Below, piece by piece: positions 1,614 to 54,462 of a stretch of DNA of 64,000 bases. This stretch comes from an uncultured Gammaproteobacteria bacterium. GTDB taxonomy: Bacteria > Pseudomonadota > Gammaproteobacteria > Competibacterales > Competibacteraceae. A program made the translations under genes and the position numbers. The notes below the pieces were generated by a model. The model did no database searches. It was not told the DNA's origin and saw only the letters and a list, made by a program, of their open reading frames with translations. Where the stretch lies: NCBI GenBank assembly GCA_963695105.1, contig CAVOGC010000008.1:16030-80029 (forward strand), in the 5' to 3' direction. How positions within the stretch are numbered: the stretch's first letter is position 1; the number at the start of each line of letters is the position of its first letter.

Positions 1614-2645
1614 TCAAACGGAGCCGTTTCGACTGATTTTTTTTTCCAGTGCCGCCACCCGCCGGAACAGCTCGTCCAGGCGACGCAGGCGGGCGCTGAT
1701 CTTGTTCCAAAGCCGGTTCGGCTCCACCGCCAAACCCGAAGAGTAGGCGCCCGGCTCGGTGATGGATCGGGCCACCAGCGACATGCCGGTCACTTGCACG
1801 CGATCGGCGATTTCCAGATGGCCGGCGACGCCGACCCCACCGCCGAGCATGCAATGGCGCCCGATGCGGGCGCTGCCCGCGATGCCGACGCAACCGGCCA
1901 GCGCGCTGTGGGCGCCAACCCGCACGTTGTGGGCAATCTGAATCTGGTTGTCCAGCTTGACCCCTTCCTCGATCACGGTATCTTCCAGGGCGCCGCGATC
2001 AACCGTGGTGTTGGCGCCGATCTCGACATCGTCGCCGATCCGGACCCCGCCGAGCTGCGGCACCTTGATCCAGCACCCATCCGGCCCGAGCGCCAGGCCG
2101 AAGCCGTCGCTGCCGATCACCGCGCCTGGATGCACCAGCACCCGACGGCCGATATGCACGCGGTGACAAAGGGTCACCTGCGCCACCAACCGTGTTTCGG
2201 CGCCCACCACCGCCTGCTCGCCGATTACGCAGTTGGGACCGACAGATACGCCCTCGCCCACCACCGCGCCGGCCTCCACCGTGCACTGCGGGCCGATCCA
2301 GGCGCTGGCCGCAACCTGCGCGGAAGGATCGACCCAAGCCGTGGGATGAATTCCGCCACGCGACCCAGCGGCTGGCGCGAACAATGCCGCCGCCCGGGCG
2401 TAGGCGACATGCGGGTTGGCGGCCACCAAAGCCGGCACCGAGCAGTACGCGGCGTCCTCGGGCGACACGATCACGGCCGCCGCCCGAGTACAGGTCAGGA
2501 ACGGGCGATAGCGCGGGTGGGTCAGAAAGCTGATCTGGCCGGGTTCCGCGCCGTGCAGGGGCGCCACGCCGGTGATGACCGTCGCGGCGTCGCACCCTTG
2601 CAAGCGGGCGTTCGCCGCCGCCGCCACTTCGCCCAGCGTGGTCAT
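1614..2645 (-). CDS. lpxD: UDP-3-O-(3-hydroxyacyl)glucosamine N-acyltransferase
   Basis: 343 aa, N-terminal LpxD domain plus hexapeptide repeats; position between skp and fabZ. Confidence 0.9.
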
Positions 2646-2650
2646 CGGGG

Positions 2651-12884: not shown

Positions 12885-13176
12885 TGCCGAAATTCTCCTC
12901 AAGGATTTGGGGTTAAGCCTCCATCCGCCCCAAGCGACGACCCCCTCATGGGGGCACCCGGTCGCCCGTGCCGGCGAATGTGCGAAGTGTGTGCAACGCT
13001 AGAAGGTTTGCCTAAAAGGCGCGCGCTTTATAACATGGATTGTTCGGGAAAACCAAATGAACCGCCGCCCGCGGGCACTGTCCCAAACACCGCGGCCCGC
13101 TCCGGACGCCGTCCCCCGCCCATCGCCCATATGCCCGTAGACCGACGCCATGTTTCAGAAAAACCCCAGGAAATCG

Positions 13177-19491: not shown

Positions 19492-21183
19492 ATGAGCAGT
19501 CTCCGTCCGGCACAGTTGGGTCCCATCGTCGGCCACACCTCGGACACCACCGCAAGGCTCTGGATTCGAGGGGGTTCAAGTGACGAAGGCGCCGCTATCG
19601 ACGAGCAACGCCGCACCATCGGCGTCATCGCCATCACCCAGGAGAACGGGCGACGCCCGCGCACCCGGCGCGTGTACTACTTCCGCCTGCGTCGCGAGTA
19701 TGACCGCACCGGTACTTTTACCTTGGGTGAGGAAGTGGGCATCAAACCCAGGGACAGGAACCCGCGACCACTAACCGCCGACACGGAATATGTGGTGCGG
19801 GTCGGCACCCTGAGCGTCGACGACCCGCACCCCGACGACGACAGCATCGCCAACGACGAACTTGCGGAGCGCCTGCCGGACGCGAACATCTGGTTAGCGG
19901 AGCTGGAAAGGCTGGATCCCGAGCACTCGGAGGCGCGCTTCAGGACCTTTCCGGCGGCGGGGAGGGGTGGCGATGAGGACCTGAGCTTCATCCTCGGTTC
20001 CTGCCGCTATCCGGGCCTGCTGTGGAAGATCAAGCTTTCCGATGCCATCTTCGGACCCTTGTTGGCGGAGGCGCGAGGCCGGGACGGCCGAGTTCCTGCA
20101 CGCTTTGCCTTAATGGTGGGTGACCAGATCTACGCCGATATGCTGAACCGCCACATTCCCATCGGTCGCGCCGACACCTTCGAGGAATTCCAGGAGCGCT
20201 ACCACACGGCCTTCGGATCGCCGCGCATGCGCGCGTTGTTGCGGCGCCTGCCCACCTACATGATCCTCGACGACCACGAGATCGAAGACAACTGGACCCA
20301 GGATCGTATTCAAAGGGTCGAACACCGCCGCGTGTTCAACCTGGCTATCCAAGCCTACCGAAGCTACCAGTGGGTGCACGGCCCCACCTGCTTCGGCATG
20401 CGCCTGTACTACTATTTCGCCTGTGGCGGCTACCCCTTCTTCGTGCTGGATACCCGCACCCAGCGCTTCATGGACGACGTGGCGGACCAGCTTGAGGACA
20501 ACCATTTGCTGGGACGTCCGAGTCTGGCCTCCGAAGAGCCCAGCCAGCTCGATCTATTGCTGAATTGGATGAAGACGAGCCAGGACCAGCACGGTGATCG
20601 CCCCAAGTTCATCGTCAGCTCCAGCGTGTTCGTACCCAATCCGATGACGGCCCGCAGCGGGCGCCAGGGAACACCCCAGCAGCGGGTCAAGTGGTGTGAG
20701 TCCAGCGATTCCTGGCCTGCTTTTCCCACGACTCGCGCCGCCATCCTTCGTCACATGGTGGAGCATCGCATCCAGAACGTCATGTTCCTCTCCGGCGACA
20801 TCCACTGCTCCAACGTGGCCACCATGCGCTTCAGCGGCTCGCCCCAGGCCGAAGCGCTCAAGGCGTTTTCCATCACCTCGTCCGCCTTCTACTGGCCCTT
20901 CCCCTTCGCCGACGGTGAGCCATCCAGCTTCGTGCATGACTCCTCGGTCCAGGGGCAGGAGGACGGCTTCGAGTTCATGGCCAACGGAGCCGCGCACGAG
21001 ATGCACTATCGTGCGTGGAACTTCACCCAGGAAGATAATTTCTGTCGCGTGGACCTGAACGCCGCCGACCGGCGCATCGTGGTGACGCCGTTCGGGACCG
21101 ACGGCAGGGTGATCGAGAAGGGTGGCTGGTTCGGCGCCAAGGGCACGCCTATCGGCTCGCAGTTGGACCTGGCGAGCTGGTAA
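19492..21183 (+). CDS. PhoD-like metallophosphatase (alkaline phosphatase D family)
   Basis: DDHEIEDNW and GDIHCSN metallophosphoesterase motifs; start at ATG 19492 (AAGGAA SD) rather than track start 19423; no signal/Tat motif seen. Confidence 0.7.
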   Translation: MSSLRPAQLGPIVGHTSDTTARLWIRGGSSDEGAAIDEQRRTIGVIAITQENGRRPRTRRVYYFRLRREYDRTGTFTLGEEVGIKPRDRNPRPLTADTEYVVRVGTLSVDDPHPDDDSIANDELAERLPDANIWLAELERLDPEHSEARFRTFPAAGRGGDEDLSFILGSCRYPGLLWKIKLSDAIFGPLLAEARGRDGRVPARFALMVGDQIYADMLNRHIPIGRADTFEEFQERYHTAFGSPRMRALLRRLPTYMILDDHEIEDNWTQDRIQRVEHRRVFNLAIQAYRSYQWVHGPTCFGMRLYYYFACGGYPFFVLDTRTQRFMDDVADQLEDNHLLGRPSLASEEPSQLDLLLNWMKTSQDQHGDRPKFIVSSSVFVPNPMTARSGRQGTPQQRVKWCESSDSWPAFPTTRAAILRHMVEHRIQNVMFLSGDIHCSNVATMRFSGSPQAEALKAFSITSSAFYWPFPFADGEPSSFVHDSSVQGQEDGFEFMANGAAHEMHYRAWNFTQEDNFCRVDLNAADRRIVVTPFGTDGRVIEKGGWFGAKGTPIGSQLDLASW

Positions 21184-33339: not shown

Positions 33340-33375
33340 CCACCCGCATCTTCAACCCCTCTCCAACGGGAGAGG
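33340..33375. repeat. REP-like palindrome cccctctcc-aac-gggagagggg (member of family also at 45255, 52128, 53403)
   Basis: 9-bp perfect inverted repeat immediately downstream of the aldehyde dehydrogenase stop; possible terminator. Confidence 0.6.
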
Positions 33376-33393
33376 GGAGAATGAACGGCGACC

Positions 33394-45254: not shown

Positions 45255-45300
45255 TTGAAAGACGCCCTCACCCCCGGCCCCTCACCCACAGGGAGAGGGG
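45255..45300 (+). terminator. REP-like palindrome with T-run between ribBA and ribH (possible terminator/attenuator)
   Basis: gccctcacccccggcccctcacccacagggagaggggagtttttg; homologous to element at 53421-53470. Confidence 0.5.
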
Positions 45301-45336
45301 AGTTTTTGTACCGCGCATCGTTACGGAATCCCCGCC

Positions 45337-50344: not shown

Positions 50345-53300
50345 TCAACGCTTTCTGCCCCCGCTCCGTTTGCGCCGCGCCCCACTCTTGGCCGCCGCCT
50401 CCCGCAACCGCACCGCCCCCACCTCGCCGATACCCGCTTTCCGGCCCGCCTCGGTCAGATAAACCCGGCGGAAGGGAATCACCCTGCCGTCGCGACTGAA
50501 GGCGTCCTCGCGCAATTCGAGCAGACCGGCGCCGGTCATCGCCTCCAACAGTCGTTCGAACTCCCGCCGCTCGACCCCCTCCGTCAGCCTTTCGCACAAC
50601 TGCCGGGGCGTTTGACCCTCGCGCCAGCGTAGCGCGTCCAGCACCTGCAAGGCCCGTTCGCTCTCGACCCGATTCAGCCGGCGGGTGCGCCGGATCGTCG
50701 CCGCCTCCGGCGCGCACACGTCGCAGATCCCACAGGGCTGGTCGTCGTCCCGGTCGCCGAAATGCCGCACCAGCCGGACCATGCGGCAACCGGTCGCCTG
50801 ATCGGCAAAATCCAGAATCTGCTTCAACTCGCTCAGCTTGTGCTCACGCTGCCGCTGGTAGGGCGGACACCAGCCGTCCTCGCCGCGACTGAGGTTGCCC
50901 TCGACATCGCGCCGGGCGCCGCCATGCACCAGCAGCTTTTCCACGGCGGCATCGAACTCCTCCAGCGCCATGCCCGACCGGTCGCGCAACAGCACCCGGG
51001 GTTGAGGATCGCCGCCGAGCGCCTGAAAGATCGCCGCCAGCCGCTCCGGGTCGGGGTAGCCGCGCCGGAAGAAAAACTCGTGGGTGCGCAGATCGGCATA
51101 GGAATACAGCAGGATGGCGCGGGCCGGCTGACCGTCGCGCCCGGCGCGACCGATTTCCTGGTAATAACCCTCGACGCTGCCCGGCAGGGCGGTATGAATC
51201 ACGGTGCGGATATCCGGCTTGTCGATGCCCATGCCGAACGCGATGGTGGCGACGATCACCTGCAAGCGGCTGGCGCCGAACAACCCTTGCACCCGCTCGC
51301 GCTCCTGCGGCGTCATCCCGGCGTGATAGGCGGCAGCCGGATAATTCGCCCCCAGTTCCAGCGCCAGCAACTCGGTTTCCTTGCGAGTCGGCGCGTAGAC
51401 GATGGCGGGCCGGCGATCCGGATCGGCCAGCACCCGCCCGACCGCCGCATGCCGGTCGGCCATCGGCGTTTCCACCGTCTCGACCGCCAGATTGGCGCGA
51501 CGAAAGCCGTGGATGTAGCGCATCGCCTCCGGCATGTCGAGCTGGCGCACGATGTCGTCCTGCACCAGCACGGTGGCGGTCGCGGTCAGCGCGATCACCG
51601 GCGCCGGCCGCAACAGGGGCAAATGCCGGCCCAGCATCCGGTAGTCCGGGCGGAAATCGTGACCCCACTGCGAGATGCAGTGCGCCTCGTCGACCGCGAT
51701 CAGGGCCGGCTTGCGCTTGGCCAGCATTTCGGGAAAACCGGGCACGCTCAGCCGCTCCGGCGCAATGAACAGATAATCCAGTTGGCCCTGCAAATACTCG
51801 ACGCACACCTGACGCGACGTGGCCCGGTCGCGGCCGGAGTGGATGCGTTCGGCCCGCAGGCCCAGCTCGCACAATTTGGTGACCTGATCTTCCATCAGCG
51901 CGATCAGCGGCGAAACCACCAGCGTCGTCCCCGCCCGGGCGATGCCGGGCAACTGAAAGCACAGCGACTTGCCGGCGCCGGTCGGCATCACCAGCAACAC
52001 GTCCCGGCCCTCGGTCACGGTCCGGCACACCTGTTCCTGATACGGACGAAAGGCTGGCAAGCGAAACTCGCTGTGCAGCAACTCCAGCAGACGGTCCACC
52101 GGCACCGGTTCCCGTCGCGGCGCGGCTTCTCGACTCTCCCCTCCTCCATCGATGGCGAGGGGGTTGGAGGGTGAGATCGGCCGCGCCACCGCGAACGCCT
52201 GGACCACCGCTTCGCCGACGTAACCGGCGATGGCGGTCATGAACCCGTCCAGATCTCCCTCGCCGCGCTGGATGCGCTTCAGCCGCGCTTCCCACTCGCC
52301 GGTCATGATCGGGCTTTTAATCGGTGGCTGCACCGCCTGAATCAAGCCAATGCCGCGCTCGGTGGCGTTCAGCGCTTTGCCGTCGCGAGTCAGATACCGG
52401 CGTTTGAGCAAAGTTTCGATGATGTCGGCGCGGGTGGCCGGCGTGCCCAGCCCGCTGTCCTTCATCGCCGCCGACAGCTCCTTGTCCTCCAGAGCCCGGC
52501 CGGCGGTTTCCATCGCGGTGAGCAGGGCCGCTTCGGTCAGACGCGGCGGCGGCCGGGTCTGCTTGGCCAGCTCGCGGACGTCCAGCACCCGCAACGGCTG
52601 GCCAACGGTCAACCCCGGCGGCAGGCTTTGTTCGGCCTCGTTCTCCTCGGTTGCCGCGCCAGCCTTGGCCTTGGCCTTGCGCGTGCCGGCGGCTTTTTCC
52701 GCCGCCGGCACGGTTTGCACCTCCAATACCTTCCAACCGACCTGCTCCACCGCCGTGCCGCTGCTGTGATAGCGATCGACCACGATCACGCCATCCGCTT
52801 CGCTCGTGGCGATCGCGGTGATCAGCGTGGTCACCGCCCAGAGGTGATCGTCGTGCCAGGCCATCAACAACCGGCGGCAGATCAGGTCGTAAATTTTCCG
52901 CTCGTCGGCGCTCAAGGCGGCACGCGCCGGCAGCGGGGTGGGAATGATGGCGTGATGGTCGGTCACTTTGCCGTCGTCGACGAAGCGCTTGCCCAAGAGG
53001 CGCTGGCCGCAGCCCGGCCCCAACCGGTCCTGATAGGGTGGCTGGATCGCCGCGACCACCGCGCCCAGCGTCGCCGCGACCGCGCTGGACAGATGGCGGC
53101 TGTCGGTGCGCGGGTAGCTGATCAGCTTGTGCTGCTCGTACAGCTTCTGGGCGAGGTCCAGCGTGGTCTGGGCGCTGAAGCCGTATAGCCGGTTGGCGTG
53201 GCGCTGCAATTCGGTCAGGTCGTACAGCAGGGGCGGGGCGGCGCGGCGGGTTTCGGCGGTACGGGATTCGACGGCGGCCTTTCCCGTCTGGGCGCGGGCG

Positions 53301-54151
53301 ACGATGCGCCCGGCTTCCTCGCCGTCGGCGAGCAGGCGTTTGGCCTTGGGCTCGGGGCGTTCGCCGCGAAACCAGACGCCCTGGTAGCGCGGTTCCTTCT
53401 CTTCCGGCCACTCTCCCACAGGGAGAGCCCTCACCCCCAACCCCTCTCCCGCTGGCGGGAGAGAGGAGTTTTGGGGCGCGAAAGTCGCCACCACTTCCCG
53501 GTAATCTTCAGGCACGAAAGCGCGAATCGCCAGGTCCCGCTCCACCACCACCGCCAGGGTCGGGGTCTGCACCCGTCCAACCGACAGCGCCTCATCGCCC
53601 GGCGCGCCGCAGGCCAGGGTATAGGCCCGCGACAGATTCATGCCCACCAGCCAGTCGGCCTGACTGCGGCCGCGGGCGGCGGCGGCCAGCGGATCGAACT
53701 CGCAACTGTCGCGCAAATGCTGGAAGCCCTGGCGGATGGCGTCGGGGGTCAGCGAGGAAATCCACAGCCGGCTGAACGGCTTGCGGCAACCGGCGGCTTC
53801 GTAGAGATAACGGAAAATCAATTCGCCCTCGCGGCCGGCGTCGGTGGCGCAGATCACCCGCTCGATAGCCTCGTCGTTGAGGATGCGGCGGACCGCCTCA
53901 AACTGATCGCGGGTTTGCTCGCCGACCACCAGCGGCCAGCGTTCGGGCAGCAGTGGCAACAGTTCGCGCCGCCAGCGCTTCCAGGCCGGATCGATCTCGT
54001 GCGGCTCGGCCAACCGCACCAAATGACCGACCGCCCAGGTGACGACGTAGCCGTTACCGTGCAGGAAACCTTCGCCGCGCTGGCGGGCGCCCAGCACCTT
54101 GGCGATATCTCGGGCGACGGAAGGCTTTTCGGCAACGACCGCAATACTCAT
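50345..54151 (-). CDS. DNA topoisomerase III (TopB, type IA) fused in-frame to a full-length RecQ-family helicase
   Basis: Single uninterrupted 1271-codon ORF. N-terminal 640 aa collinear with E. coli TopB (AEKPSVARDIA, GHLVRLAEP, VGRVQTPTLAVVVERD, LISYPRTDSRHL, DHHAIIPT); C-terminal 590 aa is RecQ (FRPYQEQ, MPTGAGKSLCFQLP, DEAHCISQWGHDFRPDY, helicase C, RQC zinc motif CGICDVC). Start ATG 54151 (MSIAVV) overlaps stop of upstream receiver gene as ATGA; upstream ATG 54160 also possible. Confidence 0.8.
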   Translation of the reverse strand: MSIAVVAEKPSVARDIAKVLGARQRGEGFLHGNGYVVTWAVGHLVRLAEPHEIDPAWKRWRRELLPLLPERWPLVVGEQTRDQFEAVRRILNDEAIERVICATDAGREGELIFRYLYEAAGCRKPFSRLWISSLTPDAIRQGFQHLRDSCEFDPLAAAARGRSQADWLVGMNLSRAYTLACGAPGDEALSVGRVQTPTLAVVVERDLAIRAFVPEDYREVVATFAPQNSSLPPAGEGLGVRALPVGEWPEEKEPRYQGVWFRGERPEPKAKRLLADGEEAGRIVARAQTGKAAVESRTAETRRAAPPLLYDLTELQRHANRLYGFSAQTTLDLAQKLYEQHKLISYPRTDSRHLSSAVAATLGAVVAAIQPPYQDRLGPGCGQRLLGKRFVDDGKVTDHHAIIPTPLPARAALSADERKIYDLICRRLLMAWHDDHLWAVTTLITAIATSEADGVIVVDRYHSSGTAVEQVGWKVLEVQTVPAAEKAAGTRKAKAKAGAATEENEAEQSLPPGLTVGQPLRVLDVRELAKQTRPPPRLTEAALLTAMETAGRALEDKELSAAMKDSGLGTPATRADIIETLLKRRYLTRDGKALNATERGIGLIQAVQPPIKSPIMTGEWEARLKRIQRGEGDLDGFMTAIAGYVGEAVVQAFAVARPISPSNPLAIDGGGESREAAPRREPVPVDRLLELLHSEFRLPAFRPYQEQVCRTVTEGRDVLLVMPTGAGKSLCFQLPGIARAGTTLVVSPLIALMEDQVTKLCELGLRAERIHSGRDRATSRQVCVEYLQGQLDYLFIAPERLSVPGFPEMLAKRKPALIAVDEAHCISQWGHDFRPDYRMLGRHLPLLRPAPVIALTATATVLVQDDIVRQLDMPEAMRYIHGFRRANLAVETVETPMADRHAAVGRVLADPDRRPAIVYAPTRKETELLALELGANYPAAAYHAGMTPQERERVQGLFGASRLQVIVATIAFGMGIDKPDIRTVIHTALPGSVEGYYQEIGRAGRDGQPARAILLYSYADLRTHEFFFRRGYPDPERLAAIFQALGGDPQPRVLLRDRSGMALEEFDAAVEKLLVHGGARRDVEGNLSRGEDGWCPPYQRQREHKLSELKQILDFADQATGCRMVRLVRHFGDRDDDQPCGICDVCAPEAATIRRTRRLNRVESERALQVLDALRWREGQTPRQLCERLTEGVERREFERLLEAMTGAGLLELREDAFSRDGRVIPFRRVYLTEAGRKAGIGEVGAVRLREAAAKSGARRKRSGGRKR

Positions 54152-54462
54152 AACCGGCATGGGGCCGAAGCCGGCCGGCGGTCGTTCCCTCCGGTCCCGC
54201 TATCCGGTTCATGGAGAGCGCCCCGCGCCATGGCGATCTTGACAAACTCCTCGTCCGGGACCGCGCGGGAGAAATAGACACCCTGCCCGTACTTGCAGCC
54301 CAGGATCAGGTCACAGCCGGTCGTGGCAACCATCTGGAGCGCCTCCTCGCCGTTGTCCGCCGCCATCACGGCGAACCCGTCCCACTCCAGAGCCTTTCTG
54401 GCGAGCAGGCGCATCATGGGATCGTCGTCCGCCACCAGGACACTCGCCCTTCCGTTGTCCAT
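54148..54462 (-). CDS. degenerate single-domain response-regulator receiver (internally shortened, phosphoacceptor Asp absent)
   Basis: [54 protein letters not shown] then G instead of acceptor D and only about 8 residues before a beta5/alpha5-like GVYFSRAVPDEEFVKIA; ATG overlaps HK stop (ATGA). Confidence 0.55.
   Translation of the reverse strand: MDNGRASVLVADDDPMMRLLARKALEWDGFAVMAADNGEEALQMVATTGCDLILGCKYGQGVYFSRAVPDEEFVKIAMARGALHEPDSGTGGNDRRPASAPCRL

Follow-up and report, generated by a model that had tools for sequence, protein, structure and literature searches.

BoxC-type triplex repeats as probable in-frame passengers of a bacterial topoisomerase III–RecQ fusion gene

Introduction

The repeats known as BoxC, PIT or TM_ECO have been on record since the 1990s (Bergler 1992; Hoyne & Maher 2000, 2002; Holder et al. 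2015, PMC4666352). They are G/C-rich elements of ~35-45 nt, in which a C-rich block and a complementary G-rich block form a hairpin that is followed by a second, mirror-related G-rich block. The published TM_ECO expression is CCCTCNCCC N3-6 GGGNGAGGG N3 GGGNGAGGG; E. coli K-12 holds 23 copies, all of them intergenic, and 3610 copies are spread across 262 proteobacterial genomes (Holder et al. 2015, PMC4666352). As single-stranded DNA, the E. coli motif adopts in vitro a stable intrastrand purine-motif triplex, visible by circular dichroism and nuclear magnetic resonance and undetected in vivo; earlier tests of E. coli BoxC gave neither promoter nor terminator activity, TM_ECO loci are rearranged more between E. 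coli strains than control intergenic sites, and the E. coli study reported no phage or plasmid association (PMC4666352). Here, we analyse copies of this motif in a stretch of 64,000 nucleotides (the window) from an uncultured member of the Competibacteraceae (contig CAVOGC010000008.1, positions 16,030 to 80,029), where two of them lie in frame within a gene fusing topoisomerase III (TopB) to RecQ. We propose, with a probability of about 0.8, that these two BoxC/PIT/TM_ECO copies became in-gene passenger insertions at two permissive sites of TopB–RecQ.

Palindromic repeats inside genes have precedents. The Rickettsia palindromic elements (RPE) are reportedly in-frame palindromic repeats of protein-coding genes that add tolerated surface peptide segments. 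In Neisseria, the Correia or NEMIS elements are small non-autonomous inverted-repeat elements that occasionally lie within open reading frames (ORFs).

Results

The fusion gene and the elements that it carries are the following, in window coordinates.

50345-54160, minus strand: topoisomerase III–RecQ fusion ORF, 1271 amino acids (translation and Pfam)
53427-53472, minus strand: loop copy of the BoxC/TM element, on the gene strand CTCTCTCCC-GCCAGC-GGGAGAGGGG-TT-GGGGGTGAGGGC
53408-53424, minus strand: small hairpin CTCTCCC-ACA-GGGAGAG (letters of the plus strand), encoding LPVGE, directly 3' of the loop copy on the gene strand
52133-52177, plus strand, antisense to the gene: linker copy, decayed, on the gene strand ATCTCACCCTCC-AA-CCCCCTCGCC-ATCGAT-GGAGGAGGGG-AGAG

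Pfam places the domains of the fusion protein at residues 8-136 (Toprim), 156-641 (Topoisom_bac), 705-863 (DEAD), 915-1010 (Helicase_C) and 1102-1149 (RecQ_Zn_bind), and residues 8-655 align to structures of E. coli topoisomerase III. A database protein of 1268 residues (P0001) is 100% identical to the window ORF, its start lying apparently three codons downstream. Judged by P0001 and its relatives, the window stems from a Candidatus Competibacteraceae genome. About 120 full-length fusion orthologues were listed (P0001-P0120) from Competibacteraceae, other Gammaproteobacteria and Thermoanaerobaculia; the more distant ones additionally possess an HRDC domain. The fusion looks like a single-chain counterpart of the RecQ–topoisomerase III partnership, with a domain order that is reversed compared with reverse gyrase. 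A literature search found no paper on natural bacterial TopB–RecQ fusions.

The loop copy is translated in frame as SSLPPAGEGLGVRA (residues 232-245) at the tip of a β-hairpin of topoisomerase domain II, and the linker copy encodes SPSNPLAIDGGGES (residues 663-676) between the end of Topoisom_bac at residue 641 and the start of DEAD at residue 705. Both peptides agree with those quoted in an earlier, sequence-only reading of this DNA, which had rightly recognised the second copy as a part of the TopB–RecQ linker and had located the first one in the TOPRIM/topo domain; it belongs to Topoisom_bac and not to Toprim. A half-copy placed by the same reading in front of the loop copy does exist as sequence but is the separate small hairpin at 53408-53424, probably the remnant of a second, inverted copy, i.e. 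of a pair that suffered an internal deletion. A full inverted pair plus a third copy occupies the loop site of one orthologue (L005), and both inverted copy pairs and deletions leaving one hairpin are on record in E. coli (Holder et al. 2015, PMC4666352).

An AlphaFold2 model of residues 1-700, based on 35 aligned sequences, gave a mean predicted local distance difference test score (pLDDT) of 65.5 and a predicted template modelling score of 0.37. Since the overall model is only moderate, its use was restricted to local order versus disorder. The loop copy falls in a coil (residues 233-254, pLDDT<50) between confident β-strands (219-229 and 259-264), and the linker copy in another one (residues 658-683, pLDDT<50) that follows a helix (637-657). 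With such confident strands and helices on their flanks, these coils place both copies where the protein would most readily accept additional disordered residues.

Two further sites of the window lie between genes.

45264-45306, minus strand: intergenic copy in the ribBA–ribH spacer, on the minus strand CCCTCTCCC-TGT-GGGTGAGGGG-CCG-GGGGTGAGGGC
33356-33377, no strand: hairpin-only relative CCCCTCTCC-AACG-GGAGAGGGG, between two minus-strand ORFs

Judged by their sequence, the repeats are the BoxC/PIT/TM_ECO intrastrand triplex motif, and neither a new family nor classical REP elements. TM_ECO no. 1 of E. coli K-12 reads CCCTCTCCCTGTGGGAGAGGGCCGGGGTGAGGGC and window positions 45264-45299 (minus strand) read CCCTCTCCCTGTGGGTGAGGGGCCGGGGGTGAGGGC, the two being separated by one substitution and two 1-nt G insertions, with the same TGT loop and CCG spacer. 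The copies at 45264-45306 and 53427-53472 can be aligned over ~43 nt as GCCCTCACCCCC-NN-CCCCTC(A/T)CCC-loop-GGGAGAG(G/A)GGAG-TTTT. When at most one mismatch per block is accepted, exactly two window sites, 45265-45299 and 53428-53465, show the three-block architecture, each on the minus strand, whereas none of 30 shuffles does; at both sites, the three consecutive blocks follow the class II purine-motif arrangement. All four sequences on which the sequence-only reading had built a homologous family are present, with limits shifted by a few bases, and this alignment and the shuffles confirm the observation. They do belong to a repeat family, with intergenic copies in the window and in relatives, but to a known one and not to a REP-like one. 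While all 23 copies of K-12 are intergenic, the window has two intergenic copies and two that are in frame within ORF 50345-54160; intergenic location is a described property of the E. coli set and not a structural definition.

This architecture is what distinguishes the elements from the composition of the window. The constituent 10-11-mers GGGAGAGGGG and GCCCTCACCCC are not over-represented in it (9 versus 7.6 and 4 versus 3.2 expected, respectively), and polypyrimidine hairpins as a class are not above chance (16 versus 14.5 expected). At 33356-33377, near the place (33340-33375) where a further copy had been announced, there is a perfect 9-bp hairpin (DNA fold z = -3.9) with no recognisable third block. 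The reverse-orientation copy announced near 52128-52176 fits the three-block pattern at 52133-52177 only with up to two mismatches per block, which is at chance level when taken alone (~5 per 64 kb). It is nevertheless considered genuine but decayed because the homologous position of two orthologues (L129 and L130) is occupied by an intact element.

The intergenic copy at 45264-45306 is flanked by genes with DHBP_synthase/GTP_cyclohydro2 and DMRL_synthase domains. The genome of the closest relative (L007) also holds a copy in its ribBA–ribH spacer (19583-19625), and the two are therefore regarded as orthologous; the copy of L007 is fairly intact at this place, whereas its in-gene loop copy is scrambled. 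A role of the ribBA–ribH copy as terminator was rejected, as a consensus scan makes no call, the hairpin is weak (z = -0.5) and the published E. coli tests were negative. A pyrimidine-strand triplex between the C-rich flank and the hairpin was likewise given up for the published fold, in which the G-rich strand adopts the purine motif. The element has no counterpart among the families of Rfam: at gathering score, Rfam gave no match at the window elements, with only sub-threshold, spurious microRNA-like hairpins, and its only matches in eight element-carrying loci of other genomes were sub-threshold microRNA-like hairpins as well. The sole gathering-level Rfam match in the window is a t44 RNA (RF00127, 69.2 bits) at 12912-13002 on the minus strand.

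The insertion status of the in-gene copies was examined in the 120 orthologues (MAFFT alignment, ordered along a neighbour-joining tree), ten of which were also read as DNA (L001-L007, L128, L129 and L130; the window gene is called WIN). Between the conserved ATFAP and RYQGVWFRG, the loop site is hypervariable. Outgroups and basal Competibacteraceae have loops of 7-16 amino acids with no repeat-like peptide, many Competibacteraceae display a loop with ...SPLPPAGEGPGVR..., and several others have loops of 9-12 amino acids. E. coli TopB has only TPADER there, and the loop copy is an insertion relative to this protein, as had been claimed. At the DNA level, L001, L005 (three copies), L006 (full nested palindrome), L130 and L004 (tandem duplication of a variant element) agree with the window gene in the codon position and orientation of the element; it is scrambled in L007 and L003 and absent from L002, L128 and L129. 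The unusual CTCTCTCCC arm is common to WIN and L130, which argues for one ancestral loop insertion.

At the linker site, L129 and L130 contain an intact cctcaccccccag-ccccctctcc-attcat-ggagaggggg-ag at the codon position and in the orientation of the window copy. The linker copy is decayed in L007, L002, L128 and L003, and missing in L001, L004, L005 and L006. These distributions point to insertions that were inherited within the Competibacteraceae with patchy decay and loss, and that are not confined to the window genome. The proposal that orthologue alignment would expose lineage-specific insertions is borne out. Two findings had been named as contradicting the family of insertions, namely the same peptide segments in distant orthologues and an absence of the palindromes elsewhere; neither was encountered.

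An explanation without any insertion would see in the two segments mere linkers of low complexity, rich in Pro and Gly, which arose in situ and owe their resemblance to the repeat to chance and composition. The G+C-richness of the genome and the chance-level stringency at which the window linker copy fits the pattern are in its favour. However, the loop copy matches at a stringency that shuffles never reach and shares its loop and flank with intergenic copies (a copy in L071 carries the same GCCAGC loop), intact copies occupy the linker site in L129 and L130, and presence and absence are clean among orthologues. This explanation is already contradicted for the loop copy and is, as a whole, the least credible of those considered.

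In the second phylum with fusion proteins, the orthologue L132 of Thermoanaerobaculia, the only one of this clade read as DNA, has a linker of 96 amino acids with three elements in both orientations, which were acquired independently. Linkers of Thermoanaerobaculia reach 165 amino acids and are rich in repeat-derived peptides; among the 120 orthologues, lengths range from 16 to 165 amino acids for the linker and from 7 to 68 for the loop. Many lineages, including basal Competibacteraceae, other Gammaproteobacteria and some Thermoanaerobaculia, have element-free linkers, and we therefore consider that elements lengthened a pre-existing linker and did not create the fusion. The earlier suggestion that the element may have contributed to the linker of the fusion protein is thus retained, in the sense of a lengthening.

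The opposite order of events would start from neighbouring topB and recQ genes with a copy in their spacer: once the stop codon was lost, translation would have run on through this copy, and the linker copy would be the original junction. Such read-through is feasible for an element that is open in five of six frames, copies do occur in short spacers between co-oriented genes such as ribBA–ribH, and they are found in the linkers of two phyla. Yet, most fusion orthologues have element-free linkers, and the linker copies of the two phyla differ in number and orientation, so that parsimony puts the insertions after the fusion. A creation of the fusion by the element is accordingly very improbable, and insertion into an existing fusion gene remains the preferred reading.

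The coding potential of the element fits its presence in genes. Read from the sequence, its single stop codon is the TGA in GGGGTGAGGG, which appears in one of the six frames only. The five open frames encode PSP/PLP/LTP, GRG/GEG/ERG and GVR/GEG, i.e. the peptides seen in proteins. In-frame copies exist in other bacteria in genes for Lhr, an MmeI-type enzyme, HypF, and leucyl- and methionyl-tRNA synthetases. The copy of the Lhr helicase lies between its WH_Lhr and DEAD_assoc domains, and Pfam domains are recognised on both sides of the copy in Lhr, in the MmeI-family restriction-modification enzyme and in HypF; a fourth ORF (N6-adenine methylase-like) was assigned by eye only. In-frame copies were recorded at L118 ~6343, L106 ~3912, L120 ~5399 and L083 ~7063.

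Nevertheless, genes are not the usual location. After filtering by codon composition, ORFs resembling coding sequences contain 14 of the 81 copies (17%) from GC-rich genome loci, versus 68% of random positions, and the corresponding values for viral loci are 27% and 55%. Copies are depleted from genes yet far from excluded. Stop-to-stop ORF coverage (48% versus 76% for random positions) was discarded as an intragenic measure in favour of this filter, since it badly overestimates. No description of BoxC copies inside genes was found in the searchable literature, including the papers that cite Holder et al.

The family itself extends well beyond the Competibacteraceae. Species-representative genomes (596 Gb) were scanned with the pattern CCCTCACCCCNNNCCCCTCNCCC, and the signature CCCTCACCCC-N3-CCCCTCNCCC was found in at least 120 genome stretches from many phyla. 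The matches listed include Chloroflexota, Planctomycetota, Acidobacteriota, Cyanobacteria, Armatimonadota, Nitrospirota, Pseudomonas, Xanthomonas and candidate phyla. Among those listed, the complementary arm, which was outside the query, is at most 45 nt downstream in 134 of 150 scorable matches; for a pattern this C-rich, a hand estimate from independent base frequencies gives from a few to about a hundred chance matches per 596 Gb. At least 120 viral or prophage contigs of IMG/VR (L135-L254) also bear the signature, with the complementary arm in 121 of the 134 matches listed, and viral contigs are a possible vehicle for the spread of the repeat across phyla. Head-to-tail arrays of the element with a period of ~42-45 nt were noticed in contigs of Anaerolineales and Caldilineales (L062 472-789 and L115 36-165). 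In acidobacterial copies (L009, L037, L064, L091 and L132 11950-12010), the hairpin loop is often enlarged by a long C-rich insert, e.g. ...CCCTCTCCCGACCCCTCCCTCCCACCC...GGGAGAGGGG; these copies look like a lineage-specific subfamily.

As for mobility, we tentatively predict, at somewhat less than even odds, that a selfish element encoding a DUF559 endonuclease (Vsr-like, PD-(D/E)xK fold) may have BoxC/TM repeats as its terminal inverted repeats. Solo and paired repeats, including those of TopB–RecQ, would then be its remnants, similar to miniature inverted-repeat transposable elements. A complete DUF559 domain (PF04480) is inserted in frame between perfect inverted repeat copies in the leucyl-tRNA synthetase of Panacagrimonas (L113 ~1716-2220, plus strand; E = 3e-34), after the editing domain, and in a betaproteobacterial methionyl-tRNA synthetase (L011 ~2105-2650, minus strand; E = 1e-32), between the anticodon-binding and tRNA_bind domains. 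With ends that contain no stop codon and encode flexible linkers, such a unit can be accommodated in frame by essential genes. A gene for the helicase HrpA (locus L134 5523-6900) is likewise interrupted by BoxC copies and a DUF559 gene (P0180), which separate two conserved motifs, the break falling between ...ERFAKHF and APIIQVSGRTYPVEVRY. Stop codons and a frameshift are present in this hrpA; they are possibly sequencing errors, as the contig appears to be long-read. Local hidden Markov model searches also found DUF559 adjoining repeats in L023 and L106, and in E. coli, TM_ECO no. 9 lies ~170 nt downstream of the DUF559 gene ycjD.

The flanks of DUF559 were inspected in the closest 120 homologues listed (P0121-P0240), those of at least 10 amino acids being scored. 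On the N-terminal side, 21 of 65 flanks contain repeat-derived peptides (0.4 predicted by shuffling), and on the C-terminal side 45 of 69 do (1.0 predicted). Gene calls for this DUF559 subfamily very often run into such peptides at both ends, with PSPPGRGAGGEG in front and PSPPTPLPEGEG or LTPTLSQRERE behind, which points to BoxC copies on either side of these genes in many phyla. Against such a link, a DUF559 gene is present in only 4 of 120 genome loci selected for the repeat, in 0 of 120 viral loci and nowhere in the window, and we know of no endonuclease or transposition activity. No paper on the link between DUF559 and BoxC was found in the searchable literature, which is incomplete. The E. 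coli fabI–ycjD region was considered as a mobility test and rejected: approximately 2,080 of 5,426 E. coli genomes have no contiguous match to the K-12 arrangement fabI–ycjD–sapF (L133, K-12 1349000-1352500), and in the one strain examined (TCM3e1, L255) TetR and RND efflux genes follow fabI. The alternative allele is thus an efflux-pump island with a breakpoint 42 nt from the BoxC copy and not a clean excision.

Discussion

How would such a repeat settle in a conserved enzyme? In the Competibacteraceae lineage, element copies would have joined the fusion gene at the β-hairpin tip and in the interdomain linker. An insert with a length that is a multiple of three is then read through as a disordered surface loop, since five of the six frames are stop-free and the peptides are rich in Pro, Ser, Gly and Glu. 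The insertions were then inherited vertically; while some lineages still have them intact, others have scrambled, duplicated or deleted them. Owing to these differing fates, no other part of the protein varies as much in length as the two sites. We favour, as mechanism, a passive tolerance of a stop-free, linker-coding selfish repeat. The data establish the family to which the copies belong, their status as insertions, the in-frame reading, the pattern of inheritance and the predicted disorder; both the mode of insertion and the status of passenger with no required function are what we infer.

Several points weigh against this interpretation. Where intact, the loop copy displays 79-93% identity (over 42 nt) versus 61-73% at fourfold-degenerate sites of the same gene pairs, in samples that are small (42 nt) and non-independent. 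A purely neutral passenger would not be expected to remain intact so long, and the copy may therefore be subject to selection or to gene conversion by other copies. The strict TM_ECO expression (9-nt blocks, second spacer of exactly 3) has no match in the window or in L001-L007, because each G block has one extra G (10 nt); the second spacer measures 2-3 nt with 10-nt blocks, or 5 nt when counted with 9-nt blocks, and the general database criteria of the same authors (stems of 6-15 nt, loops of 1-6 nt, one mismatch) appear to accommodate the copies. Besides, translation of the in-gene copies is deduced from a frame that is intact in many independent assemblies, and copies of the family were counted within the 64-kb window and ~190 kb of relatives.

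The conservation of intact copies is an argument for a retention of in-gene copies by function, which could be that of an mRNA hairpin pacing translation, of a DNA hairpin or triplex turning the two sites into programmed hot spots of length variation, or of a peptide acting as flexible spacer or Pro-rich docking motif. A version tied to the host enzyme can be conceived, as RecQ and topoisomerase III act on unusual DNA structures. Between WIN and L130, 38 of 42 loop-copy positions are identical versus 0.67 at fourfold-degenerate sites; the loop copy also forms a strong DNA hairpin (-16.2 kcal/mol, z = -2.8, for the Watson-Crick fold only), and elements built up independently in the same linker in a second phylum. 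By contrast, many orthologues lack one or both copies or have them scrambled, even the closest relatives (90% protein identity): in L007, the loop copy is 64% identical versus 83% at fourfold sites. The stems displayed no compensatory changes, the conservation could be explained by gene conversion from copies elsewhere in the genome, and the published E. coli tests revealed neither promoter nor terminator activity, nor a stable triplex in vivo. Since in-frame copies also reside in unrelated genes, nothing is specific to RecQ or topoisomerase III. On balance, a selected function is unlikely, and passive tolerance is favoured. That copies are either near-intact or quickly degraded could reflect selection, gene conversion or an instability of the broken palindrome.

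BoxC/triplex repeats have remained for 30 years without a function or a mobility mechanism, and with a strictly intergenic distribution in E. coli. To this picture, our work adds that the element is pan-bacterial, that conserved enzymes can acquire it as a fixed, in-frame insert that forms or extends their surface loops and interdomain linkers, and that its insertion sites turn into the most length-variable protein parts. Compared with the papers that could be searched, the translated in-frame location, the inheritance and decay at two TopB–RecQ sites and the independent build-up of a linker in a second phylum are different. They outline a concrete route by which a selfish repeat may become raw material for protein linkers, and the element explains the GEGxGVR and PSPxGRG peptides of the proteins examined. 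If true, the link to DUF559 would supply the missing autonomous partner of the BoxC family and a mobile element that survives in essential genes via translation and not splicing.

Regarding other repeat systems, the window copies resemble RPEs in being palindromic, in frame and in adding tolerated surface segments. Unlike RPEs, which are A+T-rich, of ~100-150 bp, restricted to Rickettsia and devoid of a triplex-type third block, they show no sequence similarity to them. Correia/NEMIS elements (100-155 bp) are defined by TA duplication, IHF sites, promoter activity and confinement to one genus, none of which applies here. With a size of 35-45 nt and another architecture, the elements depart from the 100-155 bp and family-specific terminal repeats of both groups; they behave like RPE or Correia elements as translated in-frame insertions but are not members. 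REP/BIME repeats, which are mobilised by RAYT, are also short, G/C-rich imperfect palindromes scattered between genes. However, REPs are species-specific and RAYT-linked with a typical GTAG head, whereas the present element has the same sequence across phyla and no known transposase; the GTAG head is found in none of the window copies, and no search for a RAYT gene was made.

The closest relative remains BoxC/TM_ECO itself. The block order (CCCTCNCCC, loop, GGGNGAGGG, spacer, GGGTGAGGG) is the same, near-identity to K-12 copies is observed, copies are single or in inverted pairs, and both are tied to locally hypervariable sequence with a very broad taxonomic spread. Compared with the published motif, both G blocks are one G longer here, and the signature reaches further phyla and viral contigs, beyond the proteobacterial genomes of the published survey. 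Finally, in contrast to the exclusively intergenic copies of E. coli K-12, two of the four window copies lie within coding sequence and are translated.

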